A stretch of DNA of 64,000 bases from Nitrososphaerota archaeon (GTDB lineage Archaea; Thermoproteota; Nitrososphaeria_A; Caldarchaeales; Calditenuaceae), in assembly GCA_033581555.1 (NCBI GenBank), contig JAVQSZ010000004.1:64001-128000 (forward strand). The letters are read 5' to 3'. The notes under the pieces were generated by a model. It saw nothing but the letters and a program-made list of their open reading frames with translations, made no database searches and had not been told where the DNA came from. Position 1 is the first letter of the stretch, and every line of letters begins with the position of its first letter. Positions 3,017 to 19,534 of this stretch are shown here, one piece after another. The position numbers and the translations under genes are program-made.

Positions 3017-4654
3017 ATGGCGGTCACGATCGAGGAGGTCAGGCAAGAGCTGAAGCGGAAGGTCGTGACGACGACCAGGAGCGTCTGCCCGGAGTGCAAC
3101 AGGATCCTGCCGGCCGAGGTCTTCGAGGAGGACAACAGGATCTACATCCGGAAGGTCTGCCCGGTCCACGGCGAGTTCGACGAGCTCTACTTCGGGGACG
3201 CCAAGATGTACTACAAGTTCGCGAAGTGGCTGAAGGACGGCAAGGGGACGGGGAACCCCGACGTCGAGATGCCGAGGTGCGCCTGTCCCGCGAACTGCGG
3301 CCTCTGCAGCAGCCACCTGAGCCACACCGGCCTCGCGAACCTCGTGATCACGAACCGCTGTGATCTCCACTGCTGGTACTGCTTCTTCTACGCCGAGAAG
3401 GCCGGCTACATCTACGAGCCGACCCTCGAGCAGATCAGGGAGATGGCCCTGAACTTGAGGGCCGAGAGGCCCGTCCCGGGCAACTCGATCCAGATCACGG
3501 GTGGCGAGCCTACCCTCAGGGACGACCTCCCAGAGATCGTGAGGATACTGAAGCAGGTCGGCGTGGACCACATCCAGCTCAACACCAACGGCATAAGGCT
3601 CAGCAAGGACTTCGAGTACTTCAAGAGGCTGAAGGAGGCCGGGATCAGCAACCTCTACCTCAGCTTCGACGGCGTCACGCCAAGGACTAACCCGAAGAAC
3701 CACTGGGAGGTGCCAGGCGTCCTCGAGAACGCGAGGAAGCTCGGGATCGGAGTCGTACTGGTGCCCACGGTGATCAAGAGCGTCAACGACCAGGAGCTAG
3801 GCGACATCGTGCGATTCGGGTTCGCGAACATCGACGTCGTCAGGGCGGTCAACTTCCAACCCGTCAGCCTCACGGGCAGGATGCCGAAGAAGGAGCGTGA
3901 GAAGTACAGGATCACGATCCCCGACTGCATCGCGAGGATCGAGGATCAGACAAACGGCGAGATCCCGAGGGATGCATGGTTCCCCGTTCCAGCCTGCACA
4001 CCTCTCACAGGCTTCTTGGAGGCCCTGACGAGAAGGGCCCACTACGAGCTGAGCATTCACTTCGTCTGTGGCGCCGGCACCTACGTCTTCAAGGACGGCG
4101 ACCGGATGGTCCCGCTGACCGCCTTCGTCGACGTCGAGGGCCTGATCAAGTACCTCCAGGACAAGGCGGAGGAGATCGAGGCCGGCCGTAACAGGGCCTG
4201 GGTCGGGCTGAAGGTCCTCTGGAACATCGGGAAGTTCATCAACGAGAGGAGGCAGCCGGCGGGCATGAACCTCAAGAGGATGCTCTTCGACATCTTGGTC
4301 AAGCACGACTACAAGAGCGTCGGCGACTGGCACAGGAGGTCTCTCTTCCTAGGGATGATGCACTTCCAGGACAAGTACAATCACGACGAGGAGCGGCTCA
4401 GGCGGTGCGACATTCACTACCTCACTCCCGACAACAGGATCATCCCGTTCTGCGCCTTCAACGTCATCCCGGAGTGGTACAGGGACAGGATCCAGTCGGT
4501 CTATGGCGTCTCGATCGAGGAGTGGGAGAGGAGGACGGGAAGGAAGCTCTCGGACGACTTCTACAAGAGGAAGCTCCCGGTGAAGCAGGCCGCGGTGCCA
4601 ATGGCCTCGACGAAGACCGCCGGCTTCGGCGGACTGGTCCAGGAGACTGCCTGA
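3017..4654 (+). CDS. tes: Tetraether lipid synthase (radical SAM, Tes/GDGT-MAS)
   Basis: N-terminal CPEC...CPVHG rubredoxin-like site, CPANCGLCSSH cluster, CDLHCWYC radical SAM motif, C-terminal FVCG...RCDIHY...IPFCAFN. Confidence 0.9.
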   Translation: MAVTIEEVRQELKRKVVTTTRSVCPECNRILPAEVFEEDNRIYIRKVCPVHGEFDELYFGDAKMYYKFAKWLKDGKGTGNPDVEMPRCACPANCGLCSSHLSHTGLANLVITNRCDLHCWYCFFYAEKAGYIYEPTLEQIREMALNLRAERPVPGNSIQITGGEPTLRDDLPEIVRILKQVGVDHIQLNTNGIRLSKDFEYFKRLKEAGISNLYLSFDGVTPRTNPKNHWEVPGVLENARKLGIGVVLVPTVIKSVNDQELGDIVRFGFANIDVVRAVNFQPVSLTGRMPKKEREKYRITIPDCIARIEDQTNGEIPRDAWFPVPACTPLTGFLEALTRRAHYELSIHFVCGAGTYVFKDGDRMVPLTAFVDVEGLIKYLQDKAEEIEAGRNRAWVGLKVLWNIGKFINERRQPAGMNLKRMLFDILVKHDYKSVGDWHRRSLFLGMMHFQDKYNHDEERLRRCDIHYLTPDNRIIPFCAFNVIPEWYRDRIQSVYGVSIEEWERRTGRKLSDDFYKRKLPVKQAAVPMASTKTAGFGGLVQETA

Positions 4655-4839: not shown

Positions 4840-6216
4840 TCAGCGTACGCTGGAGTATAGAACATGACCCGGGTCGAGAGCGTCCTTTATCTTAGAGAGG
4901 ATGGTCAGCGCCGGTCCCGGATCACTTTCAAGCCATCTCCTCCTCAACTGTCCGACGCCGTGGTGATGGCTTATCGTCGCACCGACCTCCAGCGCCGTTT
5001 CGAAAGCCGTCTCCACAATCTTCCAGTATAAGTCTGGATCCTTCTCGTACACGACGGTGAAGTATAGTGCGCCTCCGTTCGCGTAAAAGTGCGAGGCGTG
5101 AGCCAGGACTCCAGCGACTCCGGGAAGCTTACTGATCCTGCTCCGAATCGCCTCGTGGAGACCCGGGAGCTTGGACCACGTAGACGCGACGTCTATGGTC
5201 TCGAACCACAAGCCCATAGAGTCCAGGAGCTTAATTTCATTCAGGTAGTCGAACCTAGACTTGAGCCATGAGTCGTAGGGCCCGTCGCCCACGAAGTAGC
5301 CGCCCAGTTCCTCGACCCTCTTTCTGACCTTCTCCCACGTGGCCGTCACGAGCTCATGTTCGTAACCCTCGTAACCCAAAAGCAGCACCGATTTACTCGA
5401 ACCGAACCTCATTGCCGATTCGGCCTCGTCGGACAACCGGGCCAACGATGGCTTCATCCCCCTGATCATCAGCTCCTTCACGATCTTCAGGCCTCCGCTG
5501 AAGCTCGGCGTCTCAAAGGCTGCCTTGACCGAGTGCTTGGGCACCGGGAGCACCCTCAGCGTTGCCTTGGTGATCACGCCGAAGGCACCCTCGGATCCGA
5601 CGAAGAGGTGAACGAGGTTAGGGCCCATGGACGACCGAGGAGTTAGCACGTTCCTGGTCCACAGGATGTCCCCAGTGGGCGTCACGACCTCGAGGTTCAG
5701 GACCAGGTCCTCGACGTTGCCGTAACCCGTGCTGTACTGGCCTGAGCTCATCGACGCTATGCAACCGCCCACGGAAGCCAGGTGGAAAGACTGGGGCACG
5801 TGCCTCAGGGTGTACCCCCGTCCCATGAGCCAGTCTTCGAGGTCGCAGAGCAGGACGCCCGCCTCGGCCGTGACCGTTAGGTCCTCCTCGCTGAAGTCGA
5901 TCACCCTGTTCATCCTGCTCAAGCTCAGCACCACGCAGTCGTCCGAAGGGGCGGAGGCCCCCGTGACGCTCGAGCCGCCTCCGTGCACGACGACGCGGAC
6001 TCGGTGCTCGTTGGCCTTCCTGAGCACGTAAGAGACCTCCTCGGCGCTCTCGACGAATATCACGGCCCTAGGTTTGAACTTCCACGAGCCCAGCTTCTCC
6101 AGCAGCATCGCCAGAGGCCACCAGTCCCTCGAGTACTTGCTGGTCACCTCCGCGTCAGTTCTGACGTCGTCGCCCAAGGACCAGCTCACGTCCCTGATGA
6201 ACTCCTCTAGGCCCAT
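4840..6216 (-). CDS. Alkyl-dihydroxyacetonephosphate synthase-like FAD-linked oxidase (VAO/PCMH family)
   Basis: GGGSSVTG, HVPQSF..ASVGG, SGQYSTGYGNVED, GSEGAFGVIT, and ADPS-type ISHHHGVG. Start reassigned to MGLEEF. Confidence 0.8.
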   Translation of the reverse strand: MGLEEFIRDVSWSLGDDVRTDAEVTSKYSRDWWPLAMLLEKLGSWKFKPRAVIFVESAEEVSYVLRKANEHRVRVVVHGGGSSVTGASAPSDDCVVLSLSRMNRVIDFSEEDLTVTAEAGVLLCDLEDWLMGRGYTLRHVPQSFHLASVGGCIASMSSGQYSTGYGNVEDLVLNLEVVTPTGDILWTRNVLTPRSSMGPNLVHLFVGSEGAFGVITKATLRVLPVPKHSVKAAFETPSFSGGLKIVKELMIRGMKPSLARLSDEAESAMRFGSSKSVLLLGYEGYEHELVTATWEKVRKRVEELGGYFVGDGPYDSWLKSRFDYLNEIKLLDSMGLWFETIDVASTWSKLPGLHEAIRSRISKLPGVAGVLAHASHFYANGGALYFTVVYEKDPDLYWKIVETAFETALEVGATISHHHGVGQLRRRWLESDPGPALTILSKIKDALDPGHVLYSSVR

Positions 6217-7598
6217 CTCAATGCCCTCCTCCAGGCGTCCACGTCGACTACGACCTCCAGTTCGCCGGGCTCGACGACCAGGTCGACGTCGACCCTCTCC
6301 TCCAGGTCCCGCATGGATATCCTGCCGTCGTACAGCGCCAGCAGCATGGCCACGCCTCTGCTCGAGGCGTCCGCTCCCCTCACCCTCTCGATCCTGCGGC
6401 CGCACGCCGTCGAGAGCAGCTTGAGGTAGCAGGTGCTGTTGCTGAGGCCACCGTCGACCCGTATCACGCTTCGTCTCCCAGCAACCTCCTCGACGGCTTC
6501 TACGATACTGTGAGCAGCCAGTACGAGGCCCTCCAAAACCCCTCTGACCAAGTCGCTCCTAGTGTGTGCCAGCGATAGTCCGTAGAGCAGTCCCGTGCAT
6601 CCCCTCCTCCTGGGGAACCTGGTCTCGGTAAGCGATGGCACGAAAACCGCCGAGTGCTTAGCCTCCGTGACAGCCTTGTCGAGAGCCTCCACTTCGTCGA
6701 GAAGACCGATCCTGCAGAGCCACTCCACCGTCGATCCACCTGCAGAAGTGTATCCCTCGATGGCGTAGGCCCTGCGACCGCCGATGTTGTAGACCACCAG
6801 CGGTATGAGCTCGCCACGCGGAATCGTGAAGTCGGATACCGACGCATCCACGAACGTCCCGGTGCCGCAGGTGATCTTCAGGCAGTCTCTCCCAAGACAC
6901 GAAGAGCCTATGATCGCGGACTGCTGGTCGGCTATCAGGGCAGCGAAGTCGACTCCGTCCATCGACCCGATGTGGCTGCAGTTGTCCACGATTTCGGGGC
7001 TCACCGACTCAGGTATGCCCAGCAGGTTGTAGACGATCTCGAGCCTCTTCGCCGTCTTGGGGTGAATGAGGCCTGTAAGGGCCTCGTTGGAGAGATCGTT
7101 GACGTACCTGTTCGAGGCGACGTAGGCGACGTAAGAGCTCAGCGTTCCGACGAACGCCTCCCCCTTCGAGACCATCTCCCTGAGCGCGGAGTCGTTCTCA
7201 AGGAGCCACTTGATCCTGACCGCGGGGCTGTCCGGCCGTATCACCTTTCCCAGCACGGGGACGAGCCTGAGCGCCCTGTATACCGGCCGTGAGGTTATCG
7301 CCCTGCCTCTGGCGTCGAGCCACGTGATCACGTCGGTCAGGGGCCGTCCGCCCTTGTCCCACGCCAGCACCGAGCCTCTGTAGGTGGTTATGCCGGCCAG
7401 CCTGACGCCGAGTTCCTTAAGCCTCCTCGCGAACCCCAGGAACGTCTCCCTTATCGCGGTCGCGCTCTGCTCGACGTGACCCTCAGCGGTCCTCCGGAGG
7501 GGCACGCTAACCCCCTCCTTGAGGACGCAGTTCAGCTCATCGTCGTAGACGCTCAGCTTGATGCTGCTGCTCCCTACGTCGACGACGCCGTACTTCAT
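6207..7598 (-). CDS. FGGY-family kinase (glycerol kinase-like)
   Basis: VDVGSSSIK, ITWLDAR, ADQQSA, KITCGTGTF, VDGGLS. Start reassigned to MKYG. Confidence 0.85.
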   Translation of the reverse strand: MKYGVVDVGSSSIKLSVYDDELNCVLKEGVSVPLRRTAEGHVEQSATAIRETFLGFARRLKELGVRLAGITTYRGSVLAWDKGGRPLTDVITWLDARGRAITSRPVYRALRLVPVLGKVIRPDSPAVRIKWLLENDSALREMVSKGEAFVGTLSSYVAYVASNRYVNDLSNEALTGLIHPKTAKRLEIVYNLLGIPESVSPEIVDNCSHIGSMDGVDFAALIADQQSAIIGSSCLGRDCLKITCGTGTFVDASVSDFTIPRGELIPLVVYNIGGRRAYAIEGYTSAGGSTVEWLCRIGLLDEVEALDKAVTEAKHSAVFVPSLTETRFPRRRGCTGLLYGLSLAHTRSDLVRGVLEGLVLAAHSIVEAVEEVAGRRSVIRVDGGLSNSTCYLKLLSTACGRRIERVRGADASSRGVAMLLALYDGRISMRDLEERVDVDLVVEPGELEVVVDVDAWRRALRWA

Positions 7599-8545
7599 CC
7601 CGCGAATACCTCCACGCGCTCGACGTCGCCAGTAACGTCGATCACCGCGTAACCCTCTCTCAGCTCGTACGTCTTTCCCTCGATCAGAGCTCTGGATCCC
7701 CTGTGACCTATCACGAGGAACCTCCTGAGGCATTCGCAGACGGTATGGGGGAAGACTCTCAGGTTCCCCCTCGCGATCACCTTCACGGTCTTCCCGCACT
7801 CGCAGGACATCCTGTCCGCCATCATCTCAGAGGCCTTCACCAGGACCTTCGGGTCGTAGACGTCAATTGCCGCGTGTCCTGCCGCGGGGAACTCCGGGAA
7901 CGGGTTCCAGGGTTCGAACATCGCTATCACGAGCGTGTCGACATCGAGGGCCTCTCCGTTGACGTACACGGACGAAAGTCTGCCGCGCCCCCTGACCCGC
8001 TCGACCCTGCCCCTCAGAACCGAGACGTCGTCGGGGACCATCGACTCGAGGTCGTCTCCTGATGGGCCGGAGGGGTCCACTATGACGACCCTTCTGGTGC
8101 GCTCCAGAAGCTTCACGGCGAGCAGCGCGCTGTACCTGTTTAGGCCGTATAGGACCACGTGTCTGCCCGGCAAGAGCCCCTCCATGAGGAGGTCTAAGAC
8201 CGCGTGGTAGGGGTACACGCCGGAGGGCCTGTCTCCGAGGATTCCTAGCTCGAGGGGCGTAAGGACTCTGAAGCCTGTGGCCACCACGCAGCCCTTCAGG
8301 CCTTCGACCCCGTCGCTCGAGACGGCCACCAGTTCGGATCCGACCCTCACGGCGGTCTTCTCGGTTTCCACCTTGACCTCCCGCGAGAGCTCGTCCACGA
8401 CGCTCATGGCCTCGGGGTCGATCACGGAGATGCCGCCCAGCTGGCGCCTCGTCTCGATGACCCTCGCGTCGATCCCCCTGTCGAGCAGATGTTTGGAGAG
8501 CGAGAGCCCGGCCAGCCCAGCCCCTATGACCGTTCTACCAGCCAT
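7595..8545 (-). CDS. NAD(P)/FAD-dependent oxidoreductase, partner of GlpA-like dehydrogenase
   Basis: GAGLAG Rossmann motif, ATGFR..GDRPSGVY, C-terminal CEC..CEC. Confidence 0.75.
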   Translation of the reverse strand: MAGRTVIGAGLAGLSLSKHLLDRGIDARVIETRRQLGGISVIDPEAMSVVDELSREVKVETEKTAVRVGSELVAVSSDGVEGLKGCVVATGFRVLTPLELGILGDRPSGVYPYHAVLDLLMEGLLPGRHVVLYGLNRYSALLAVKLLERTRRVVIVDPSGPSGDDLESMVPDDVSVLRGRVERVRGRGRLSSVYVNGEALDVDTLVIAMFEPWNPFPEFPAAGHAAIDVYDPKVLVKASEMMADRMSCECGKTVKVIARGNLRVFPHTVCECLRRFLVIGHRGSRALIEGKTYELREGYAVIDVTGDVERVEVFAG

Positions 8546-9936
8546 GAGCCCTCACCCCCCTTGACGAAGACTTCGGGTCTCAGACCAGTAAACCTGAACA
8601 CCTCGACTATCGCCCTGCCCAAGCAGTGCTGACCCTGACAGGACCCCATGCCTAGTCTTGTCCTGAACATGACGCCATCGAGCGTCTTAGAGCCTGCCCT
8701 GATCGCGTCCTCGATGTCAGCCGAGCTGACGGCCATGCAGGGACAGACGACGGTGCCTCTCGGGCCCTTGACCGCGAGCGGGTCGATCTGAAGGAGCTCC
8801 CGGGTCCTATGCGCGAAGTCGGGATTCCTGAGGCCGCTCTTCGGCTTGAGATCCAATCCGGCCCTCTTGAGCATGTCCAGCACTGTCACGGCGATGGCCG
8901 GTGCTGCCGTGAGCCCCGGCGACTCCACGCCCACCAGGTTCACGACCCTGAAGGTCTTCGGGGAATAGGCGATGACGAAGTCGCCGCGGACGTGTGAGGG
9001 CCTCACGCCGGCGTACGCCTTGAGGGGTCTGCCCTTGGTCCTGACGAGCCCGCCGAACCTCGCCACGAGCACCTCGACGTCCTCAGGATAGACTCCCTTG
9101 TCGTCCCTCGAGCCCCCTCTGACCAGGTTAGGGCCCCAGATGGTGTTGCCCCAGACCGTTGGGATTATGCCGCCGCCCTTGGTCTCACCTCCGCGGACCA
9201 GCTGGAGGGGCGCAACGACGCTCCTCACTTGAAGCCCGTCGAAGACCAGCATCGCCCCCCTCTTCGCGACTAGGGACTCCTTCGCTCCGCTGAGGTTCGC
9301 TATCCTGTCGGACTCTAAACCGGCAGCGTTGACGAGGAACTTCGACTTTATTGGACCTCGGTTGGTCCATAAGACAATATAATTCGGCTCGACTTCTATT
9401 CCTTCGACTTTGGTGTTGAAACGGAACTTCACACCACGAAACCTCGAGACGTCGTGCAGCTTGTACACTAGATCGAAGGAATCGATGACGCCGTAGCCAG
9501 CTATCCTGATAGCCGCATAACCAATCACGTTGGGCTCCATGGCCCTCAGCTCCGTACAGTTCACAACCGATACGTCGAAACCCTTGGTTCCGTAGTAGAG
9601 CCTCAGGACCGCGTAGACGAGCGGCAAGAGGAGGAGCTGCCCTAACGAGCGAGCTACCAGAAGCGCCGGAAGGCGCCAGAGTTTCACCTTCAGATCCGCG
9701 GCCACCGCGTCGTACATCCTGTTGCCCCGCAGAGCTAGCGCGCTCTTCACGGACTTAAGGGGTAGCTGGACGACGTGCAAAACGCCCGCGTGTCCCTTTG
9801 AAACACCGAAACCCGGCTCTGCCTCGCTCTCTACCACTACGACATCGACCTCGTATTTCGATAACTCATAAGCAACGAAAAGCCCCACAACGCCGGCGCC
9901 GATTATCGCGACGTCGTGAGCCCTGTTACCCTCCAT
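8524..9936 (-). CDS. FAD-dependent glycerol-3-phosphate dehydrogenase-like protein (GlpA/LhgO family) with BFD [2Fe-2S] domain
   Basis: IIGAGVVG, AGVRP, ESPGLTAAPAIA, VCPC...RTRLGMGSCQGQHC. Confidence 0.8.
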   Translation of the reverse strand: MEGNRAHDVAIIGAGVVGLFVAYELSKYEVDVVVVESEAEPGFGVSKGHAGVLHVVQLPLKSVKSALALRGNRMYDAVAADLKVKLWRLPALLVARSLGQLLLLPLVYAVLRLYYGTKGFDVSVVNCTELRAMEPNVIGYAAIRIAGYGVIDSFDLVYKLHDVSRFRGVKFRFNTKVEGIEVEPNYIVLWTNRGPIKSKFLVNAAGLESDRIANLSGAKESLVAKRGAMLVFDGLQVRSVVAPLQLVRGGETKGGGIIPTVWGNTIWGPNLVRGGSRDDKGVYPEDVEVLVARFGGLVRTKGRPLKAYAGVRPSHVRGDFVIAYSPKTFRVVNLVGVESPGLTAAPAIAVTVLDMLKRAGLDLKPKSGLRNPDFAHRTRELLQIDPLAVKGPRGTVVCPCMAVSSADIEDAIRAGSKTLDGVMFRTRLGMGSCQGQHCLGRAIVEVFRFTGLRPEVFVKGGEGSWLVERS

Positions 9937-11632
9937 GAGACTCCTTCCCCCGACGGAGCCGATAGTTCAACCACCTTGAAGCGAAGAAGGCCACGCTTGC
10001 GACCACCATCAGAGGCGCGCCGAAGAACCCAGTGAAGGCCGATCTCATTAGCGAGTTGAAGAAGAACAGAGCGTCGTTCATGTCAGGGGACGGGAACCTG
10101 AAGCTGGCGCCGTAATCGACGTAGAACGGCAACGCGTAAGCTAAGCTGACCAGTATTGCGGCCAGTGCCGTGAAAACAGAGATCACGAGAGCCCTGAACA
10201 AGTCCCTCCTCGAAGGCACGAACTCTACTACCCCGATGATGGCGCCCGCGACCAGCCCTCCGACGATTGCGCTCGTCTGAATTCTGCTGATCAGCCATCC
10301 GAACGACTCTATGTCTGAGAGGCTGAAGGGGCCATTGTTCAGCGCGTAGGAAGCCCAGAAAGACAGCTCATACGCCAGCAGTCCGATGATCAGCGAAATC
10401 AAGTGCCTCCGCAAGCCTCTGACCACGGTCACTTTGACCGCGAGTCCTGTCACAACGACGGCGAAGGAAGTCGCCGCGGCGGCCAGGGCTAACCTGAGGT
10501 TTCCGCCTCCCTTCCTCAGGTCCTTGGTCATCGAGTCGTAACGGCTTACGGGATCCGTTGTGGGATCCGTCCTGAGTCCGGTCGCCTCGCTTAACGCTCC
10601 GACCACCCTCAGCCCCTGATCGATCGATGCTCTGAGGTAACGCTCAACGGTATCACCCGGAAGTGCAAAGCCTCCACCCAACACGACGCCTATGGAGTTC
10701 GCGGGAATCTTCCATCCCATCACCATCGATACTGTGGGAGCGACGTCGTTGTGCGTGAACGCATCGTCATAGACGCCGGGCTTCACGACGGGTCCTAAGA
10801 ACAACAGGAAGACCCTCCTGACTTCGCGCTCTGGTCCTCCGTGATGTGCTCCTCTCTTGAACCCGTGATCGGTTAAAATGACTATCAATGTGTCATCGCT
10901 TAAGCCGTCCCTTTTCAAAGAATTCAGGAAGTTCATGGTCAATTGGACTATGTTCACTACGGTCGCGTTGTACTCCTCTCCTGGAAACCCAGCTTTGTGT
11001 CCCATAATGTCTACGTCATTTACCCCAACCCACAGGAAGACCTTATGGCCCATGTTTGCGTGCCTCTTGAGGAGCTCGAGGCCTTTGCTCAATGAAAGGG
11101 CGCCGTGCCCTCCACCGTCGCCGACGCTCACGCACTCGTCGATGAGGTGCGAGAACAGGGTTCTGAAGGAGTCGTCGCCGCTGCAGAGTATCCTGTACCC
11201 AGATTCCTTGGCGACTTTGACGAGACTGTCTACCTTGAGGGTCCTCTTGAAGTCATTCGAGGACGCCTCGTTCAGTTCTGGAGGGGTCCCGGTAAGTATG
11301 GATGCCCTGGCGGGCAAGGAGTAGGAGGGCATGTTAGACAGGCCGTTCGGGTAAAACGCGCCGAGTGAAAGGAGCGATGCTATGTGGTCGTGCTTGCGGC
11401 TCAGGTCGGTCAAGACTCTCACGTCTAGGCCGTCGAGCAGAACGAAGACGACGTGCTTCGCTGCGGCCTCTCCCGAGACCTCTACGCGATCGACTTCGGT
11501 CAGCGCGTCCAGGTACGGGTTCCTGTAATCGATCCAGCCGTTGTAGGCGCTAAGGGCCGTGGAGGCCGCAGCATAGGAGAGGGCCGGAACGAGGATGAGG
11601 GCGATCGCGAGGGACGCGTAGAATAGCTTCAC
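9926..11632 (-). CDS. Alkaline-phosphatase-superfamily membrane protein resembling GPI ethanolamine-phosphate transferases
   Basis: N-terminal TM, LLDGL, PSYSLP nucleophile region, DVDIMGH, TDHG..HHGG, HNDVAPT..IPANSIG, about 5 C-terminal TMs. Start is 11632 or 11647. Confidence 0.7.
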   Translation of the reverse strand: MKLFYASLAIALILVPALSYAAASTALSAYNGWIDYRNPYLDALTEVDRVEVSGEAAAKHVVFVLLDGLDVRVLTDLSRKHDHIASLLSLGAFYPNGLSNMPSYSLPARASILTGTPPELNEASSNDFKRTLKVDSLVKVAKESGYRILCSGDDSFRTLFSHLIDECVSVGDGGGHGALSLSKGLELLKRHANMGHKVFLWVGVNDVDIMGHKAGFPGEEYNATVVNIVQLTMNFLNSLKRDGLSDDTLIVILTDHGFKRGAHHGGPEREVRRVFLLFLGPVVKPGVYDDAFTHNDVAPTVSMVMGWKIPANSIGVVLGGGFALPGDTVERYLRASIDQGLRVVGALSEATGLRTDPTTDPVSRYDSMTKDLRKGGGNLRLALAAAATSFAVVVTGLAVKVTVVRGLRRHLISLIIGLLAYELSFWASYALNNGPFSLSDIESFGWLISRIQTSAIVGGLVAGAIIGVVEFVPSRRDLFRALVISVFTALAAILVSLAYALPFYVDYGASFRFPSPDMNDALFFFNSLMRSAFTGFFGAPLMVVASVAFFASRWLNYRLRRGKESHGG

Positions 11633-11668
11633 AACGCACTCACACATGCAATTCGGGCTGAACGCGAT

Positions 11669-13495
11669 TTAAGGGTTGCAGCCATCTTCGTCGTGAATCG
11701 GAACAGACCGACTGGACTTGTTGAGTAGCGCTTCTTGGGCTGCGGTAATTGGTGGGGCGCTCTTCGACGCAGTGAGCTCACGGGTGAACGCACGGGTCAT
11801 TCGCGCGCTCTCGGACCGGTAACGGGTCCCACGTTCACGGTCGAGTCCTAGTACGTAATTTCGCAGCAAGTAAGTCATGACGCCCGCCACCAGCGCGGTG
11901 ATCAGGTTGCCGACCGCATGGAACTGACCATATGCTACTCCCAGGAGCAGGTACCACGCGATCAGGGGCCCGAGGAAGATCCTCTCTCCGAACTCGATCA
12001 GGAGCATCAAGAACGTGGTGAGGCCCGCGACCAGCAGGAGGGCCCTGACAGGCCTCCGCCTCACGAACGGTATCCACGGCCAGAGCGTGAGGATCGGTGC
12101 GAGTAGGACCACTGTCCCGAACCTGTTGTAGAGGAGCGAGGCGACGGCTGCGACCGAGAGTGCGACCATCACGGGGAACGGGTGCGCACGTCCCCTCTGA
12201 CGGAACATGACTGCGGCCGCGACCGGAGGAGCGAGGAAGAGGGCGAAGACCAACGGGTCCGGCGAGTAAAGGTATGGATGCCGCGGCGGAGGAGGGTAGG
12301 TGTCGTACCTCGGTATCAGGCCGAGGGCCGGCGAGACCGATACGAGCGAGAAGGAGACGACGAAGGCGGCCGCGTAGACGCCGAGCTCGAGGAACGCGCC
12401 CTTGACCTCCCTCCTCCTCTCCCAGAGCGATGCCGCGTGGACGATGACCGGTATCGCGAGGACCGAGGGAGCGACGTACGTCACCGGACCAGGCACGTAA
12501 CGGCCGTCCAGCGCGAGGTAATCGTCGTCGTATGGAGGTACGCGGTCGGCCTCGTCGAGGCTCTTGACCAGTGCGTAGACGTAGCGGCCGTAGGCCTCGA
12601 AGGAACTGACCCTCATGTTCTCCATCGTGTCCTTGGGAGTGTGGTAGACCTCCCTCGCGAGCTCGGGAGCGTCGCCCCTGGTCGATACCTCGATCGCGGG
12701 GATTCCCTTAGCGATGATGGGCCCCTGATCCGTGAAGGAGATGTCGACCGCCCTATAGACGTACTCCCACAGGCCGCTCGGGTCCTCGACGCGGACTCCC
12801 AAGCGATCGCCCACGTCCCTGCAGAGCCTCCTGAGCCATAGCGGAGCGTACCCGGAGAATTGGCCCATCGACTCGAGGTAGATCGACGTCAAGTTGCCGA
12901 CCGTGAGGTCCTCGGCGACCACCACAGCTCTGATCGGCGGGCCCTCGTACCGCTCGACGAAGTGCCTCGCTCCCTGCATCCCCCACTCCTCCGAGTCGAC
13001 GAAGGCGAAGACGATCTCGCGCCTGTTGGGGACTTCCCTCAACGACCGCGCCAGCTCGAGAAGGACTCCGACGTGACCGGCCGTGTCGCTCGCTGCCTGG
13101 TAGCTCGTGGGGGCCATGTCGTAGTTGACCAGGACGACGACCGCATCGGGGACGCTTCCTTTGAGCGACGCGTAGACGTTCCTCCCGTTCCTGGGCCGCT
13201 CGAGGACCACCTCGAACTCCTGGACCTTTACCTCGTAGCCCATCTCGCGTAGCCGGTCGCTGATCCAGAGGAACGCCCGGAAGGCGTCCTCGCTCCCTGT
13301 AGTCCTATATGGGAAGCGGGACGCTAGCTCGGCGGCGTACTCGTAGGCTTTGGTCGCGTTGAACCTGATCTCCTGGACGACCGGCTCGATCTCCGGCACG
13401 ACCGGCTCCGAGACGAGGTGGAGCAGCAGGAAGGCAGCGACGCATGACACGTAGACCGCGGCCAGAACCCTATTGTCTCTCAACGTCGACGCCAA
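11669..13495 (-). CDS. Membrane M28-family metallopeptidase-like protein (N-terminal TM, M28 domain, multiple C-terminal TMs)
   Basis: RTTGS, VNYD, ASDTAG, DSEEWGMQGA, TDQGP, YHTPKD. Confidence 0.8.
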   Translation of the reverse strand: MASTLRDNRVLAAVYVSCVAAFLLLHLVSEPVVPEIEPVVQEIRFNATKAYEYAAELASRFPYRTTGSEDAFRAFLWISDRLREMGYEVKVQEFEVVLERPRNGRNVYASLKGSVPDAVVVLVNYDMAPTSYQAASDTAGHVGVLLELARSLREVPNRREIVFAFVDSEEWGMQGARHFVERYEGPPIRAVVVAEDLTVGNLTSIYLESMGQFSGYAPLWLRRLCRDVGDRLGVRVEDPSGLWEYVYRAVDISFTDQGPIIAKGIPAIEVSTRGDAPELAREVYHTPKDTMENMRVSSFEAYGRYVYALVKSLDEADRVPPYDDDYLALDGRYVPGPVTYVAPSVLAIPVIVHAASLWERRREVKGAFLELGVYAAAFVVSFSLVSVSPALGLIPRYDTYPPPPRHPYLYSPDPLVFALFLAPPVAAAVMFRQRGRAHPFPVMVALSVAAVASLLYNRFGTVVLLAPILTLWPWIPFVRRRPVRALLLVAGLTTFLMLLIEFGERIFLGPLIAWYLLLGVAYGQFHAVGNLITALVAGVMTYLLRNYVLGLDRERGTRYRSESARMTRAFTRELTASKSAPPITAAQEALLNKSSRSVPIHDEDGCNP

Positions 13496-14549
13496 GCCCC
13501 TTCAGTCCCTCCAGGAAAGACGCGGGGTCGATGACCGCCTCGGGCGGGAGCACACCCCTCTCCGACACCTCGCCCCTCAGGATCGAGTGAGCGCCGAGGG
13601 CGGCGGGCGCAGCCGTCAGCTTCCTCATCCTGTTCACGGAGCAGTAGCTAACCCGCCTCTCGCCCCTCACGGCCTCGACCCTGACGCCGCTGAGCCCGAC
13701 CCCTCCGACCCTGAAGACGCCCTCGATTCTGTGGATCGCCCTCGAGAGCTGCTCGAGCCTCTCCTCGGTCGAGGTCAGCCGCATTCCGACTAGCGTCCTG
13801 AGCAGACCGTTCTGCCACGCCGGGACTAGGCCCCCTCTCACGGTCACGTTCCTAGAGACCCTGAGGTGACTTGGTATCGTGAGCGGCTCTGGGTGGCCCA
13901 CGTAGTACAGCTTCAGCTTCCCGATGAAGGGGAACTCGAAGACGGCCGGAGACGATCCTGCCCTCACCTTGGTCAGCCTGCCCTCGAGGTACATCGGGAC
14001 CTCGCCCGTGACGGTGTGGAGGAGGTGCATCACGACCGCGAGCCCCTTCGAGTCGGCGGCCGACCCGAACCAACCTATGTTCACCTCGTCGACCTCTCCT
14101 CCTAGCTCCTCGCAGCACCTCTTCGCAATGACATTAGAGAGCCCTGGCGTCCACCCGAGACCGGTTACGAAGGTGACGTCCTTCTCGATGGCTCGCCGGT
14201 GCAGGCCGAGGATCCTCTCGGTGGCGTCGTGGTCGTCGCAGACGTCGACCGCGTCGATCCCCAGCTCGATCAGGGCTGAGGCCACGACGTGCCCGTACTT
14301 GAAGAACGGCCCCACGGCGCTCACGACGACCTCATACCCTCTCGCTGCGGTCATGTCCTCCCTCGAGGTGACGTCGACCTTGACGGCCCCAACGTCGCCC
14401 AAGTCTTTCAGGGACCGTGCGACCTCGAGCGCTCGCTGGACGTTCACGTCGCCTATGTCGACCTCCTCTCCGAGCTTCACCAGCTCCTCGACTATTCCGC
14501 CCCCGATGTCGCCGGCTCCGCCGAGCACCAGGACGCGCCTGGACCTCAT
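13470..14549 (-). CDS. Saccharopine dehydrogenase / lysine 6-dehydrogenase-family oxidoreductase
   Basis: LGGAGDIG, SAVGPF, GLGWTPGLSN, GHPEP, GVLPPE. Confidence 0.8.
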   Translation of the reverse strand: MRSRRVLVLGGAGDIGGGIVEELVKLGEEVDIGDVNVQRALEVARSLKDLGDVGAVKVDVTSREDMTAARGYEVVVSAVGPFFKYGHVVASALIELGIDAVDVCDDHDATERILGLHRRAIEKDVTFVTGLGWTPGLSNVIAKRCCEELGGEVDEVNIGWFGSAADSKGLAVVMHLLHTVTGEVPMYLEGRLTKVRAGSSPAVFEFPFIGKLKLYYVGHPEPLTIPSHLRVSRNVTVRGGLVPAWQNGLLRTLVGMRLTSTEERLEQLSRAIHRIEGVFRVGGVGLSGVRVEAVRGERRVSYCSVNRMRKLTAAPAALGAHSILRGEVSERGVLPPEAVIDPASFLEGLKGLGVDVERQ

Positions 14550-15643
14550 AGCGATGCGCTGCTTAGGGCCTTCGGGAGCTTAGTCGTGTTCTCGTAACCC
14601 GTCGATCCCAGAACCACGTCGTCCTCCAGCCTCACTCCGAATTTCCCGGGCAAGTATATTCCGGGCTCGATCGTAAATATCATTCCAGACACCAGCGGAG
14701 ATTTGTCGCCCTCGACTATGTACGGCGCCTCGTGGACCTCGACCCCGAGCCCGTGGCCGGTGCGGTGTATGAAGAACGAAGCGTAACCCTCATGCGCAAT
14801 GACCGACCTCGCGGCCCTGTCGACCTCCTCAGCAGAAACTCCAACGGCTATCGCGTCCAAGGCCCGCTGCTGCGCCTCCAACACGACGCTGAAGACGCGC
14901 TCCTGCTCCGGGTCTGGTCTATCTAGCACAAAGGTCCTAGTGAAGTCGGCGTAGTAGCCCCTGTAACAGACCGAGGCGTCGAAGACTATCGCGTCGCCCT
15001 CACGGATCCTCCTCGACGTGGGCTCGAGGTGTGGGTTCGCGCCGTTCGGTCCGGACTGGATCAGGCAGTAAACGCTCTCGGCTCCCAAGTCGTAGCAACG
15101 ACGGAGGAACGTGGTCATCGCGTCCCTCTCAGTCATCCCGGGCCTGAACTCCGCCATCGTCTCGAGCATCGCCTCCTCCAAGACGCGGGCGGCCATCACG
15201 TGTCTGACGACCTCATCGGGGTCCTTCGGAAGCCTCATGCTGACGATAACGTGGTCGACTATGTCGAACTTCAGTCCCGGAGCCCTTTGCACGAGGTTCC
15301 TGTAAAGCCACACCGGCGTCCTCGACTCCACGCCGATCACCCCCGAGAGTCCGGAGAGCAGTCTCTCCACGAAGCCCCAGGGTCCCGTCCCGTCGCCGTA
15401 GGGGAGGACCTCACAGTAGCGTCCTATCGCCTCCTCGACCCTGTCCCTGTCGAGCTGTGGGACGACCATAACCGGCTCCCGGTCGAACCCGGCAAGGAGG
15501 AACGCGGGCCTCTCGAAGACCTCCAGCGTGAAGTCGAGGAGGTACCTCATGTTTGGGCCGGGCACGACTATCGCACCATCGAAACCGGACGCCCTGCAGA
15601 GCTCGAGGAACCTCTTCAGCCTCGAATCGACGCGGACCGGCAC
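14546..15643 (-). CDS. pepQ: Xaa-Pro dipeptidase (M24B prolidase)
   Basis: ANPH, YYADFTRT, HRTGHGLGVEVHEAP, TIEPGIY, GVRLEDD. Confidence 0.9.
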   Translation of the reverse strand: MPVRVDSRLKRFLELCRASGFDGAIVVPGPNMRYLLDFTLEVFERPAFLLAGFDREPVMVVPQLDRDRVEEAIGRYCEVLPYGDGTGPWGFVERLLSGLSGVIGVESRTPVWLYRNLVQRAPGLKFDIVDHVIVSMRLPKDPDEVVRHVMAARVLEEAMLETMAEFRPGMTERDAMTTFLRRCYDLGAESVYCLIQSGPNGANPHLEPTSRRIREGDAIVFDASVCYRGYYADFTRTFVLDRPDPEQERVFSVVLEAQQRALDAIAVGVSAEEVDRAARSVIAHEGYASFFIHRTGHGLGVEVHEAPYIVEGDKSPLVSGMIFTIEPGIYLPGKFGVRLEDDVVLGSTGYENTTKLPKALSSASL

Positions 15644-15782
15644 GCTCCGAATATGCGCCGGTGGGACTTAAGGTGAGAGGTCTCGCCGTCGATCAGGGCG
15701 CAACGCGATGCTCCTCTGACCCTCAGCGGATGCTGGGAGGAGCCGGAAAGCCAAAATACTGAACGTCATCGCTCAGCGGAGG

Positions 15783-16751
15783 ATGGGCGCGGATCCGCTC
15801 CTCACGGTGAAGGGCCTAAAGACCTACTTCTACACCTCGATGGGCGTCGTGAAGGCCGTCGACGGCGTCAGCCTGAGGGTGGGGAGGGGGTCCGCTGTCG
15901 GGATAATCGGGGAGTCGGGCTCGGGGAAGACGATGACCGGACTCTCGATCCTCAGGCTCGTGCCATATCCCGGCCGCATAGTCGCGGGTGAGGTCCTCTT
16001 GGACGGGGTAGACTTGCTCAAGCTCAGCGAGGAGGAGATGAGGAGGATAAGGGGGAAGAGGATCTCGATCGTCTTCCAGGACGCGCTCACCAGCCTGAAC
16101 CCCGTGTTGACGGTCGGCGAGCAGCTGGCCGAGCCCCTGATGACCCACCTCGGCCTCAGTAGGAAGGAGGCCTATGAGCGTGCCACGGAGATACTCAAAA
16201 GGGTCGGGATACCGGACGCGAGCAGGAGGCTCACCAACTACCCTCATCAGTTCAGCGGCGGCATGAGGCAGCGCGTCCTGATAGGCATGGCGATCTCTTG
16301 CAACCCGGAGCTCCTGATCGCGGACGAGCCCACGACGGCCCTCGACGTGACCACTCAGAAGCAGATCATGGACCTATTCAGGGAGCTGATGGAGAGGATG
16401 AAGATGACGCTTCTGCTGATCACTCACGACATAGGCGTGGCCGCAGAGGTGTGCGACTACATCTACGTGATGTACGCGGGCCAGATCGTCGAGGGCGGAC
16501 CGACTGAACAGATCATCTCGGACCCTAAGCATCCGTACACGAGAGGGCTGATAGAGTCGATCCCGAGGGGCTTCAAGACGGAGGCGAGGGCCAAGCCGAT
16601 CAGTGGGACGGTGCCCTCGCTCCTCAACCTACCTACCGGGTGCAGGTTCCATCCCCGCTGTCCTCTCGCGATGGAGAAGTGCAGGAGGGAGGAGCCCGAT
16701 CTCATAGAGCTCGGGGACGGAAGGAGCGTGAGGTGTCTGCTGTATGAGTGA
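15783..16751 (+). CDS. dppD: Peptide ABC transporter ATPase (DppD/OppD)
   Basis: GESGSGKT, FSGGMRQR, ADEPTT, GCRFHPRC. Confidence 0.92.
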   Translation: MGADPLLTVKGLKTYFYTSMGVVKAVDGVSLRVGRGSAVGIIGESGSGKTMTGLSILRLVPYPGRIVAGEVLLDGVDLLKLSEEEMRRIRGKRISIVFQDALTSLNPVLTVGEQLAEPLMTHLGLSRKEAYERATEILKRVGIPDASRRLTNYPHQFSGGMRQRVLIGMAISCNPELLIADEPTTALDVTTQKQIMDLFRELMERMKMTLLLITHDIGVAAEVCDYIYVMYAGQIVEGGPTEQIISDPKHPYTRGLIESIPRGFKTEARAKPISGTVPSLLNLPTGCRFHPRCPLAMEKCRREEPDLIELGDGRSVRCLLYE

Positions 16752-17709
16752 CGGCGAGCTCCTGATCCGGCTTGAGGACGTGAGGAAGTACTTCCCTGTC
16801 TACAGGGGGATCCTGAGGAGGAAGGTCGGGGAGGTCAAGGCCGTCGACGGCGTCTCGCTCGGTGTGAGGGCAGGGGAGGTCTTCTCCGTCGTCGGGGAGT
16901 CGGGGAGCGGGAAGACCACCCTCGGGAGGATCGCCTGCGGCCTCATCGAACCGGACAGCGGCTCGGTCTACCTCAGGGACACCCCCCTGAGCGAGCTGAA
17001 CGGCCGGAACGCGGCCCATGTCAGGAGGCGGCTCCAGATAATCTTCCAAGACCCGGACTCATCCCTTAACCCCAGGATGACCGTCGAGGCGACCCTCCGA
17101 GAGGCGCTGAGGGCCGCGGGGAAGGCCGGCACCCGCGCCGAGGCCCTAGAGCTCCTTCACATGGTGGGAATGAGGGCCGAGCACCTAGTCCGGTACCCGC
17201 ACGAGCTGAGCGGCGGCCAGAAGCAGAGGGTCTGCATTGCAAGGGCGCTTGCGGTCGACCCGGTCTTCATCGTCGCCGACGAGCCCGTATCCTCCCTCGA
17301 CGTCTCGATCAGGACGTCCATCCTGAACCTGATGCTGGACCTCCAGAGGAGTCTGAACCTCACTTACCTCTTCATCTCGCACGACATGGCGGTGACGAAG
17401 TACGTGGCCGACAGCGTCGCGGTGATGTACTTGGGGAAGATCTGCGAGATGGCACCGGCAAGCGCGTTCTTCAGCAACCCACTCCACCCCTACTCGAGGG
17501 CGCTGCTCTCATCGGTCCCGCAGTTCTACAACCTATGGTCCGGGGAGCACGTGAAGCTCACGGGAGACCCTCCGTCCGCTATGAGCCCGCCTCAGGGGTG
17601 CAGGTTCCACACGCGTTGCCCCTACGCGTTCGAGAGGTGCAGGGTAGAGGAGCCGAAGCTGATCGAGGCCGCTCCGGGTCACTTCGTCGCGTGTCACCTT
17701 TACGGCTAG
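16744..17709 (+). CDS. dppF: Peptide ABC transporter ATPase (DppF/OppF)
   Basis: GESGSGKTT, LSGGQKQR, DEPVSSLD, GCRFHTRC. Confidence 0.92.
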   Translation: MSDGELLIRLEDVRKYFPVYRGILRRKVGEVKAVDGVSLGVRAGEVFSVVGESGSGKTTLGRIACGLIEPDSGSVYLRDTPLSELNGRNAAHVRRRLQIIFQDPDSSLNPRMTVEATLREALRAAGKAGTRAEALELLHMVGMRAEHLVRYPHELSGGQKQRVCIARALAVDPVFIVADEPVSSLDVSIRTSILNLMLDLQRSLNLTYLFISHDMAVTKYVADSVAVMYLGKICEMAPASAFFSNPLHPYSRALLSSVPQFYNLWSGEHVKLTGDPPSAMSPPQGCRFHTRCPYAFERCRVEEPKLIEAAPGHFVACHLYG

Positions 17710-18605
17710 AGGAGCCTCATCCTAGGGTCGAGGGCGTCTCGGAGTCCGTCACCTATTAGGTTGAAGGAGAGGACGGTCAGGAAGATCGCGAGGCCCGGAG
17801 CCAACACGAGGTGCTGCTGCGAGAAGATGTAGAGGTAGTACTCCCCGAGCATCTGGCCCCACTCCGGCGTCGGCGGCTGTACCCCCACACCTAGGAACCC
17901 GAGTCCCGCAGCAACCAGTATCGCGGTCCCCATGTATAGCGTGGCCTGAACGATCACCGGCGAGAGCGCGTTGGGGAGGACGTGCCTGAACATGATCACG
18001 TAGCTGGGTAGCTGAAGGGCCCTCGCCGCCTCGACGTAGTGCATCTCCCTTATCGTCAGGACCGAGGCCCTCACGAGCCTCGTGAAGACCGGGATCGCTG
18101 TCACGCCGACCGAGATGATCACGTTCTGAAGTCCGACCCCGAGCATCGCGACCAGTGATAAGGCCAAGAGGAAGGTCGGGAAGGAGAGCAGGACGTCGGT
18201 GACCCTCTGGACCACCATGTCAACCCACCTCGAGAAGTACCCGGAGAGTAGTCCGAGGACGACCCCGATCGCCGCCCCGAAGGAGACTGCCGCGAGCCCC
18301 ACTAGAAGGGACATCCTGCTCCCGTAAAGGATCCTTGAGAGGACGTCCCTCCCCAACTGATCCGTCCCAAGCGGGTGCTGCGGGCTCGGAGGCCTCAACG
18401 CGTTAGCGAGGTCCTGCTTGATCGGGTCGTGTGGGTAGTAGTCGGCGAGCAGGGCGCTAGCGACGAACCCCATGAGTATCATCAGTCCCGCGACTGCGGC
18501 CCTGTTCCTCCTATACCTCCTCCAGAACTCCCCGAGGAGAGCGAACCTCGTCCTCTCCTCGACGCCCTCGAGCTCCCTGAGCAGCTCGGCCTCCTGGCTA
18601 GTCAT
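17706..18605 (-). CDS. dppC: Peptide ABC permease (DppC)
   Basis: HPLGTDQLGRD, YVEAARA, PEWG. Confidence 0.92.
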   Translation of the reverse strand: MTSQEAELLRELEGVEERTRFALLGEFWRRYRRNRAAVAGLMILMGFVASALLADYYPHDPIKQDLANALRPPSPQHPLGTDQLGRDVLSRILYGSRMSLLVGLAAVSFGAAIGVVLGLLSGYFSRWVDMVVQRVTDVLLSFPTFLLALSLVAMLGVGLQNVIISVGVTAIPVFTRLVRASVLTIREMHYVEAARALQLPSYVIMFRHVLPNALSPVIVQATLYMGTAILVAAGLGFLGVGVQPPTPEWGQMLGEYYLYIFSQQHLVLAPGLAIFLTVLSFNLIGDGLRDALDPRMRLL

Positions 18606-19527: not shown

Positions 19528-19534
19528 TTTCGGA

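Follow-up and report, generated by a model that had tools for sequence, protein, structure and literature searches.

A GlpK-derived kinase, a G3P-dehydrogenase-like enzyme and an ADPS-like flavoenzyme in an archaeal operon: a possible salvage pathway for substituted glycerols

Alkyl-dihydroxyacetonephosphate synthase (ADPS or AGPS, EC 2.5.1.26; structures 4bby and 2uuu) enolises a ketone of the dihydroxyacetone phosphate (DHAP) type, bonds its C1 to N5 of the flavin and expels the C1 substituent (PMC3509576; this paper and the others given below by PMC number or DOI are cited from excerpts of their text). In Pseudomonas aeruginosa, the operon PA3026-PA3025-PA3024(-PA3023) of the GliR regulon encodes a flavin adenine dinucleotide (FAD) oxidoreductase, a GlpD homologue and an FGGY kinase; PA3026-PA3024 were co-induced more than 40-fold with a phospholipase C (PLC, PA3464) and a lipid kinase, their deletion gave no phenotype and left growth on glycerol intact, and the route from glycerol to alkylglycerone phosphate drawn by the authors was taken from database maps only (PMC8151288). 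Furthermore, the GlpTk-NOX-MOX system of Thermococcales combines a DAO-fold dehydrogenase carrying a BFD domain with a NOX-type flavoprotein encoded after it (Schmerling et al. 2025, PMC11962113). Two other systems come close, namely the Escherichia coli ygc cluster, where the FGGY kinase YgcE lies near the flavoprotein YgcU, and the D-2-hydroxyacid dehydrogenases GlcD, LctD and LDHD. Here, a stretch of 64,000 nucleotides (the window) from a Nitrososphaerota archaeon of the family Calditenuaceae (assembly GCA_033581555.1, contig JAVQSZ010000004.1, positions 64,001 to 128,000) was analysed, in which five minus-strand genes overlapping in series (4840-11647) encode an esterase, a glycerol 3-phosphate (G3P) dehydrogenase-like enzyme, a NOX-type flavoprotein, an FGGY kinase and an ADPS-like flavoenzyme. 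The kinase, the dehydrogenase and the flavoenzyme form a module that is tentatively read as a pathway dedicated to the catabolism or salvage of a glycerol derivative substituted at its distal (C1) oxygen or position, and not as housekeeping glycerol catabolism.

Compared with AGPS/ADPS, the ADPS-like protein of the operon has the same two-domain FAD fold, its best PDB sequence match and the same Arg, Tyr and HHH residues, but it is about 100-200 residues shorter, with a cap shorter by about 30 residues, and the iron-sulfur (Fe-S) and electron transfer flavoprotein (ETF) partners of its relatives are not mentioned in the excerpts of the ADPS papers examined. The P. aeruginosa operon presents the same trio and a phosphoesterase link, PA3026 being placed in the HHH family by the description in the excerpts of PMC8151288; however, it involves a GlpD-type dehydrogenase and a lipid kinase, whereas the archaeal operon has a GlpTk-type dehydrogenase, a reduced NOX subunit and an ectoenzyme of the alkaline phosphatase type. 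E. coli YgcU is 30% identical (198 bits) to the archaeal protein and shares HHHG, Tyr and Arg with it, but the ygc cluster has no G3P dehydrogenase, contains an ETF (YgcQR) and an ETF-QO-like protein (YgcNO), and its kinase YgcE is remote from the archaeal one (27 bits). With respect to GlpTk-NOX-MOX, for which the excerpts of PMC11962113 mention no ADPS-like neighbour, the NOX subunit is shortened and the DUF1667 (MOX) subunit is absent from the archaeal operon. Full GlpTk-NOX-DUF1667 sets were found in other loci bearing the module (L006, L014, L030, L066, L069, L103, L110, L114 and L118). Finally, GlcD, LctD and LDHD share the fold of the ADPS-like protein, as well as partner types (Fe-S proteins with CCG domains and ETF) that are common to the module relatives, but their H-x-GDGN-x-H and EHG motifs are replaced in it.

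The nearest relative of the ADPS-like protein (81% identity) was found in a metagenome-assembled genome of Candidatus Caldarchaeales. Its family was assigned by PDB scores, the best matches being ADPS of Dictyostelium (2uuu, 165 bits) and guinea pig (4bby, 160 bits), followed by LctD (121 bits) and LDHD (98 bits). Two controls were used, of which the only paralog in the genome, of GlcD type, gave the reverse result (98 bits to AGPS against 269 to enzymes of the D-lactate/glycolate kind), and E. coli YgcU scored 142 bits to AGPS and 95 to the next family. The first-pass annotation of this DNA had reported an HHH motif typical of alkyl-DHAP synthase, and this motif is real: ISHHHGVG (residues 415-422 of 458) aligns with LSHHHGVG in both solved ADPS enzymes. 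Overall, Arg260, Tyr385 and His417-419 align to the Arg, Tyr and HHH of ADPS, with the local sequences ARLSD and ALYF falling on the catalytic R352 and Y508 of the Dictyostelium enzyme. Both of these residues and R447 are essential by mutagenesis in that enzyme (PMC3509576), and mutants matching R352 and Y508 have PDB entries (Arg419His, 4bc7; Tyr578Phe, 4bca), a SEQRES offset of +3 having been deduced from the ADPS alignment. Across the ADPS-like rows, Arg260 was kept in 81 out of 82, and Tyr385 and His376 in all 82; the conservation of HHH is circular for the 80 loci described below, which were found through the motif, but the window protein and E. coli YgcU have it as well. We take the HHH loop to correspond to His615-617 of the guinea-pig enzyme.

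On the other hand, the GlcD-type motifs H-x-GDGN-x-H and (G/A)EHG, which presumably bind metal, do not occur in the archaeal protein, where AHASHFYANGGALYF and SHHHG are found, that is, H-x-Y-x2-G-x3-Y and HHH in their place. The GlcD-type paralog of the same genome has GHLGDGNIH and AEHGIG, with E, H and AEH at the Arg, Tyr and HHH columns. An AlphaFold2 model of the ADPS-like protein (pLDDT 88.6) retrieved AGPS chains in the top 29 Foldseek ranks (E 1e-35, TM 0.90), followed by mLDHD (E 1e-30, TM 0.86), whereas VIA-align gave a tie between mLDHD (Z 40.2, 438 residues, 2.7 Å) and AGPS (5ae1_B; Z 39.8, 454 of 458 residues, 2.2 Å). Because of this tie, the fold does not discriminate between AGPS and LDHD, and the active-site set decides. 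Judged by its residues, the last enzyme is of ADPS type at the active site and not of GlcD type, and the placing of this oxidase outside the GlcD/Dld group was thus upheld. Moreover, Protein Atlas returned generic FAD-oxidoreductase clusters only, and a complex prediction of the ADPS-like protein with the GlpA-like dehydrogenase, run without controls, spoke neither for nor against such a complex (score 0.00, mark 0.32). An extra domain found only in ADPS carries a gate-keeping helix controlling the lipid channel of that enzyme (PMC3509576). The archaeal protein has nothing to match the AGPS sequence ahead of residue 159 or residues 1-92 of the Dictyostelium chain. The gate helix presumably sits in this missing N-terminal region. 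In Vulcanisaeta-like genomes, a second ADPS-like paralog (36-37% identity with the archaeal protein) stands alone, with no adjoining kinase or dehydrogenase (L018; L099:12013-13356; L111).

The kinase matched FGGY_N as well as FGGY_C in Pfam (64 and 81 bits), and its top PDB matches were glycerol kinases (139 bits), while its score against the glycerol kinase equivalog TIGR01311 was 187 bits (185 in the genome-wide search), not reaching the cut-off of 590. The GlpK signature comprises Arg83, Glu84, Tyr135, Asp245 and Phe270, "extremely well conserved" across GlpK clusters (Zhang et al. 2011, PMC3245297). In an alignment with E. coli GlpK, the archaeal kinase reads R-G-(W)-D-D-(Q)-F, having lost two of the five GlpK-defining residues (Glu84 to Gly and Tyr135 to Asp). 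In particular, Glu84, whose column adjoins the invariant Arg, was replaced in all 40 module-linked kinases (the window, 21 out of 21 in the first set, 16 out of 16 in the archaeal set and two fusions) by Gly, Ala, Ser, Thr, Leu or Asp. Tyr135, the column of which is a variable loop, was replaced in the window, in 20 out of 21 kinases of the first set, in 14 out of 16 of the archaeal set and in both fusions; L066 retains Tyr here, and the column is a gap in L105 and L118. Going by the signature that defines the family, the module kinases would not be glycerol kinases, and the objection foreseen in the first-pass annotation, a kinase confined to free glycerol or sugars, finds no support in these residues. 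Furthermore, canonical kinases with the residues REWYDQF were found elsewhere in nine module-bearing genomes. A canonical GlpK lies 4 kb from the module in Streptomyces (L050), and others were found in Vulcanisaeta, Binatia and Acidimicrobiaceae, as well as in all five archaeal module-bearing genomes tested (633-676 bits). Three genes of Vulcanisaeta sp. JCM 14467, for a PF04185 phosphoesterase, the module dehydrogenase and the canonical GlpK, are broken into two frames apiece (L002:4222-7203; G061:C12:82276-83798), owing to frameshifts or sequencing errors.

The dehydrogenase (PF01266, 152 bits; PF04324, 41 bits) scored below every curated G3P-dehydrogenase cut-off of NCBIfam, the nearest family being the type 2 G3P oxidase (139 bits vs. 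a cut-off of 460), with GlpA also near, and the BFD cysteines Cys398, 400, 433 and 438 were invariant in eight homologues. From these matches, it is probably a G3P-dehydrogenase-like enzyme of the GlpA/GlpTk kind. The literature search found no paper on the G3P-binding residues of this dehydrogenase. Residues 2-247 of the small flavoprotein gave a match to the NOX subunit from GlpTk-NOX-DUF1667 clusters (hhalign 99.3%, E 4.9e-20), the protein being shortened to 316 aa from about 415; no DUF1667 (MOX) match was found in it by Pfam up to E=5 (hhalign 0.5%), nor any DUF1667 gene within 4840-11647. Its identification as GlpB or GlpC was rejected, as a reduced NOX subunit fits and the C-terminal cysteines are not conserved in the homologues. 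The "G3P dehydrogenase pair" initially described holds as a pair of dehydrogenase and flavoprotein, but of the Thermococcus GlpTk/NOX kind and not GlpA/GlpB. In Binatia and Bradyrhizobium, a canonical GlpD occurs next to the module's copy, which scores lower, and in Streptomyces the module-linked GlpD-like protein scores lowest of three copies, none of them above the cut-off.

To establish the linkage, one genome per species was scanned with an SHHHG-type pattern, which gave at least 600 stretches, 598 of them confirmed, and the best 80 were kept as loci. A GlpD- or GlpA/GlpTk-like gene appeared in 71 of the 80 (tblastn), and among the nine loci without one there were four short contigs; a CCG Fe-S gene adjoins the ADPS-like gene in five of the nine and lies 2.6 kb from it in a sixth, L049. 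Pfam/NCBIfam annotation covered 12 loci. Several gene arrangements were found, including GlpTk-NOX-DUF1667-kinase-ADPS-like-CCG in Thermoproteota L006, the same genes differently ordered in L014 and L030 (Thermoplasmata) and in L066 (Chloroflexia), ADPS-like-CCG-kinase in Archaeoglobus (L022), GlpD-ADPS-like-kinase in Binatia and Acidimicrobiia, and GlpTk-NOX-DUF1667-ADPS-like-ETF-kinase in Peptoniphilaceae (L069). Moreover, a GlpD::ADPS-like fusion of 1070 aa adjoins an FGGY kinase::HAD fusion in L008 (8219-11431 and 11549-13705), and among the longer proteins there were further GlpD::ADPS-like (P0146, P0147, P0149), ADPS-like::GlpD (P0148) and ADPS-like::FGGY (P0151, P0152) fusions, all with HHHG. 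The synteny of the trio, on which the initial proposal leaned, is therefore conserved, up to gene fusion. The FGGY::HAD phosphatase fusion of L008 is accounted for by none of the readings considered here.

In the phylum sample, an ADPS-like match at E <=1e-60 was found in 29 out of 301 genomes (16 out of 128 genera); in the window's own order, 3 out of 61 genomes had one. The further archaeal set comprised 20 of 32 places from this sample, with many congeners, so that its counts overstate independence, and 16 of the 20 had kinase, dehydrogenase and ADPS-like gene together. A FastTree phylogeny, reduced from 83 rows to 43 by dropping 40 near-duplicates of actinobacterial origin, separated three clades by context, that of the window at a support of 100, the one linked to CCG at 98 and the one with GlpD/GlpK and ETF at 93, the tree being effectively unrooted and its deep forks unsettled. 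Tandem or fused pairs of FAD-linked oxidases, one of them with HHHG, were also observed (L049, L074; proteins P0126, P0128, P0135), the CCG gene standing directly after the tandem pair in L074 and 2.6 kb off in L049. Such a tandem pair with CCG has a GlcD-GlcE-GlcF-like layout and may mark a redox ancestry of the ADPS-type set.

Phosphoesterase genes recur beside the module. The esterase of the archaeal operon scored about equally as Phosphodiest (PF01663, 54 bits) and Sulfatase (PF00884, 46 bits), which leaves a phosphodiester, a phosphonate monoester or a sulfate ester as the substrate class; its PDB matches, to sulfatase and phosphonate-monoester hydrolase, were weak. Its predicted layout consists of an N-terminal anchor, an outside catalytic domain with S-L-P-A-R-x4-T-G and C-terminal membrane spans. 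The anchor, the Ser-type sulfatase-like S-x-P-x-R-x4-T-G and the C-terminal spans were conserved in three homologues (homologue coordinates are L087:25-1761 and L118:5434-6984). An alkaline-phosphatase-type esterase adjoins the module in three different families of the phylum (window/G002, G049 and G223), and an unrelated gene of the PF04185 phospholipase-C/acid-phosphatase family stands directly before the dehydrogenase in Vulcanisaeta-like genomes (L002, L099, L105, L106, L107). Among the 20 further archaeal loci, five had a phosphoesterase beside the module.

What was observed in favour of a dedicated pathway comprises gene order and domains, residues of ADPS type, conserved linkage up to fusion, a changed substrate signature in the kinase and canonical paralogs at other places. 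Since the kinase has lost two residues that would hold the distal hydroxyls, the putative C2 dehydrogenase is private to the module and the last enzyme is of ADPS type, such a pathway is the explanation that we favour, with considerable doubt. All of its chemical steps are inferred; candidates for the substituent are alkyl ether, acyl, glycosyl and thioether groups, and the last step may be redox-neutral or oxidative. In the first step, the outside phosphoesterase, of the alkaline phosphatase type here and of the PLC/acid-phosphatase family in Vulcanisaeta-like genomes, would free the compound. The GlpK-derived kinase would then phosphorylate its free primary hydroxyl, and the GlpTk-like dehydrogenase, with its NOX-type partner, would oxidise C2 to give a C1-substituted DHAP. 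Finally, the ADPS-like flavoenzyme would enolise this ketone via the conserved Tyr, bring about attack on flavin N5 and expel the C1 substituent, either hydrolytically (as in the ADPS half-reaction) or oxidatively via a hemiacetal, yielding DHAP or its 2-oxoaldehyde. The Fe-S and ETF partners of the relatives favour a net flow of electrons in this last step.

A narrower version, in which an ether (or other non-hydrolysable C1-O or C1-S) bond of monoradyl glycerols would be cleaved without oxygen through phosphorylation, C2 oxidation and carbanion/flavin-N5 chemistry of the ADPS type, releasing the alcohol and sending the backbone to glycolysis, is distinctly unlikely. Archaeal core lipids are dialkyl, so that C2 cannot be oxidised, and the module is found in bacteria, E. 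coli among them, that are not known to make ether lipids. For these reasons, and because the gate region is missing and the cap is shorter, a long alkyl substituent is disfavoured; bacteria without ether lipids of their own could, however, meet them as food. In the first-pass annotation, the kinase, dehydrogenase and ADPS-like enzyme had been proposed to cleave or remodel archaeal ether lipids. The enzyme types and their linkage stand; the specific claim has nothing archaeal in its support. The module is also found in E. coli (the YgcU cluster), Pseudomonas, Streptomyces and many other bacteria, is patchy in its own order (3 of 61 genomes), shows in its relatives an Fe-S/ETF coupling that points to net redox chemistry, and is without the region presumed to hold the ADPS gate helix; moreover, the neighbouring tetraether lipid synthase gene is convergent and, G002 aside, had no match beside the module in the other loci examined.

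Several observations weigh against the dedicated pathway. The second catalytic Arg of Dictyostelium (R447) aligns to Asn326, in a gapped stretch and a variable column, with the nearby Arg321 kept in 80 out of 82 rows. A module-type FGGY kinase was found within 10 kb in only 22 of the 80 loci, and the sole partner in about 50 mostly Streptomyces-type loci is a divergent GlpD-like gene, so that the trio is common and not universal; furthermore, these 80 loci, the top-ranked ones among at least 598, include many close kin. Genes for CCG proteins adjoin the ADPS-like gene at 10 of the 80 loci, L009 has a Fer4_8 protein there, 9 of the 20 archaeal loci have a Fer4 or CCG gene in that place and L069 and E. 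coli have ETF genes, and such partners fit an ordinary dehydrogenase at least as well as an enzyme that expels a group. The window's own operon has no Fe-S or ETF partner. In addition, no other GlpK-like gene was found in the window's own genome (90.6% complete), where the module kinase could hence still be the sole glycerol kinase. No assay of any module member was found in the open-access literature. We know of no FGGY kinase or G3P dehydrogenase that takes C1-substituted substrates.

The main rival is plain glycerol catabolism, according to which the kinase yields G3P, the GlpTk-like enzyme yields DHAP, and the ADPS-like protein is an accessory, true flavin dehydrogenase that oxidises G3P, glycerol 1-phosphate (G1P), DHAP or a by-product of DHAP, passing electrons to Fe-S proteins, ETF or O2. 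It is unlikely. On its side, translational coupling of ADPS-like genes with Fe-S (CCG, Fer4) or ETF genes is seen in three clades, the tandem ADPS-like genes with CCG in L074 and L049 and the tandem fusions P0126, P0128 and P0135 resemble GlcD-GlcE-GlcF sets, the fold is tied with that of D-lactate dehydrogenase (Z 40.2 vs. 39.8), the window's genome has no other GlpK-like gene, and several module kinases exceed the cut-off of 498 of the GlpK subfamily NF000756 (L006, 553; L007, 549; L014, 594). However, Glu84 is lost everywhere and Tyr135 in all readable kinases but one, canonical GlpK and GlpD coexist with the module, the GlcD-type motifs are replaced by the ADPS set, and growth on glycerol does not require the Pseudomonas operon (PMC8151288).

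Still less probable is a polyol-phosphate pathway of the erythritol type, in which the kinase and a GlpD-like enzyme would act on a C4 or C5 polyol or ketose and the ADPS-like protein would oxidise or rearrange the ketose phosphate. EryA and EryB act on erythritol in Brucella, the kinases of the ETF clade are XylB-like (L069, 255 bits, RDWVDKT; L066, 237 bits, RSWYDKV), and the E. coli cluster adds a sugar-acid-type short-chain dehydrogenase/reductase, two transporters of the major facilitator superfamily and a GlpP-like antiterminator; but the kinases of the window type and most bacterial module kinases are nearest to GlpK, keeping Arg83, Trp103, Asp245 and Gln246, and no conserved isomerase or aldolase genes were found beside the module in the annotated loci. 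The least likely is a biosynthetic ADPS as in eukaryotes and myxobacteria, making alkyl-DHAP from acyl-DHAP and a long-chain alcohol and hence G3P-type ether lipids in an archaeon: AGPS is the closest match of both its sequence and its model, the enzyme retains the catalytic Arg, Tyr and HHH, and JGI and KEGG-style annotation labels the homologues alkyldihydroxyacetonephosphate synthase, but the 90.6%-complete genome has no match to PF01553, for a GNPAT-type acyltransferase that would supply acyl-DHAP, and just three weak partial matches (35-44 bits) to PF07993, for the fatty-alcohol partner FAR, the AGPS residues before 159 are unmatched, just 3 genomes out of 61 in the order and 29 out of the 301 sampled in the phylum carry the module, and it also occurs in E. 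coli, not known to us to make ether lipids. As for published routes, that of the Pseudomonas authors came from database maps (PMC8151288), and a preprint with an AGPS filter of 500-700 aa reports, in the excerpts used, no archaeal plasmalogen pathway (10.1101/2025.10.10.681575).

The coordinates of the operon and of the genes upstream of it are given in Table 1. The four overlapping co-directional genes described initially are real, and a fifth upstream, the esterase, overlaps the dehydrogenase gene by 11 nt; from the 5′ end, the overlaps are 11, 22, 4 and 10 nt. The ADPS-like start was taken as the ATG at 6216, which gives the recorded form, as a longer GTG frame to 6405 adds low-complexity Arg/Gly, and the kinase start was placed at Met68 of a long frame, the onset of the Pfam match. 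The three upstream genes, which are syntenic in G002, a genome of the same genus, are separated by gaps of <=21 nt as far as 15643, and from this spacing they are possibly on one transcript with the operon. The array is divergent from a Dpp/Opp peptide ABC transporter.

Table 1. Position and assignment of the operon genes and of the upstream genes in the window.
Feature	Position	Strand	Basis
ADPS-like FAD enzyme, 458 aa, last operon gene	4840..6216	-	PF01565+PF02913, PDB sequence matches, AF2 model
GlpK-derived FGGY kinase, 463 aa, altered substrate signature R-G-W-D-D-Q-F	6207..7598	-	FGGY_N+FGGY_C
Reduced NOX-type flavoprotein subunit, 316 aa	7595..8545	-	hhalign to NOX subunit
GlpA/GlpTk-like FAD dehydrogenase with C-terminal BFD [2Fe-2S] domain, 470 aa	8524..9936	-	PF01266+PF04324
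Membrane-anchored alkaline-phosphatase-superfamily esterase, 573 aa	9926..11647	-	PF01663, PF00884, hydropathy
M28 peptidase, saccharopine-dehydrogenase-like, M24 Xaa-Pro dipeptidase; upstream, co-directional	11669..15643	-	Pfam/NCBIfam

On the other side of the operon, a gene for the tetraether (glycerol dialkyl glycerol tetraether, GDGT) lipid synthase Tes lies on the plus strand at 3017-4654 (714 bits vs. a cut-off of 450), convergent with the last gene of the operon and with 185 nt between the stop codons. No tblastn match to Tes was found in the 80 loci or in the 20 further archaeal loci, and Tes was kept beside the module solely in G002. Being convergent and without a match in these 100 other loci, it was rejected as a part of the module and is considered a neighbour only. 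The region 11669-21133 is a peptide-scavenging block, in which the M28 and M24 peptidase genes and the saccharopine-dehydrogenase-like gene share the orientation of the operon and point away from a full set of Dpp/Opp-type ABC transporter genes (for two ATPases, two permeases and a binding protein). Farther away in the window and unlinked to the operon, two isoprenoid genes were found, for HMG-CoA reductase (51879-53066, minus strand, 473 bits, above the cut-off) and a geranylgeranyl-reductase-family protein (60535-61659, plus strand). The seryl-tRNA synthetase at 53116-54657 (minus strand) is of the rare methanogen type (TIGR00415 serS_MJ, 423 bits vs. a cut-off of 490; NF002120, 473 vs. 611). 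The host genome has 1.43 Mb, and near-identical DNA was found in hot-spring metagenome runs from four studies, three rows being flagged as possible sources.

The bacterial trio and its database-derived "alkylglycerone" label are already in print, according to the excerpts of PMC8151288. The open-access literature searched gave no report of a GlpTk-type variant in archaea, of a systematic loss of GlpK signature residues, of canonical paralogs coexisting with the module, of its fusions, of its wiring to Fe-S proteins or ETF or of the phosphoesterases that recur beside it, nor anything on the function of YgcU and Rv2251. Short prokaryotic homologues (about 430-480 aa) are named alkyl-DHAP synthase in many genomes, and this enzyme is among the lipid genes recovered for the last universal common ancestor in a 2024 reconstruction (PMC11383801). 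Since these proteins combine the ADPS catalytic set with a near-constant, diverged G3P dehydrogenase of their own, often a kinase, and in many lineages Fe-S/ETF wiring, the name is unsafe as an indication of ether-lipid synthesis. If the dedicated pathway were true with an ether-linked glycerol as its substrate, it would represent a new ether cleavage capable of working anaerobically, with consequences for how ether lipids are turned over in sediments and hot springs. Apart from the alkylglycerol monooxygenase, which depends on O2 and tetrahydrobiopterin, no ether-lipid-cleaving system would precede it; its range would take in both bacteria and archaea, and the "ADPS" in reconstructed ancient gene sets would be accounted for. 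If the substrate were something else, the module would still be a widespread three-enzyme pathway.

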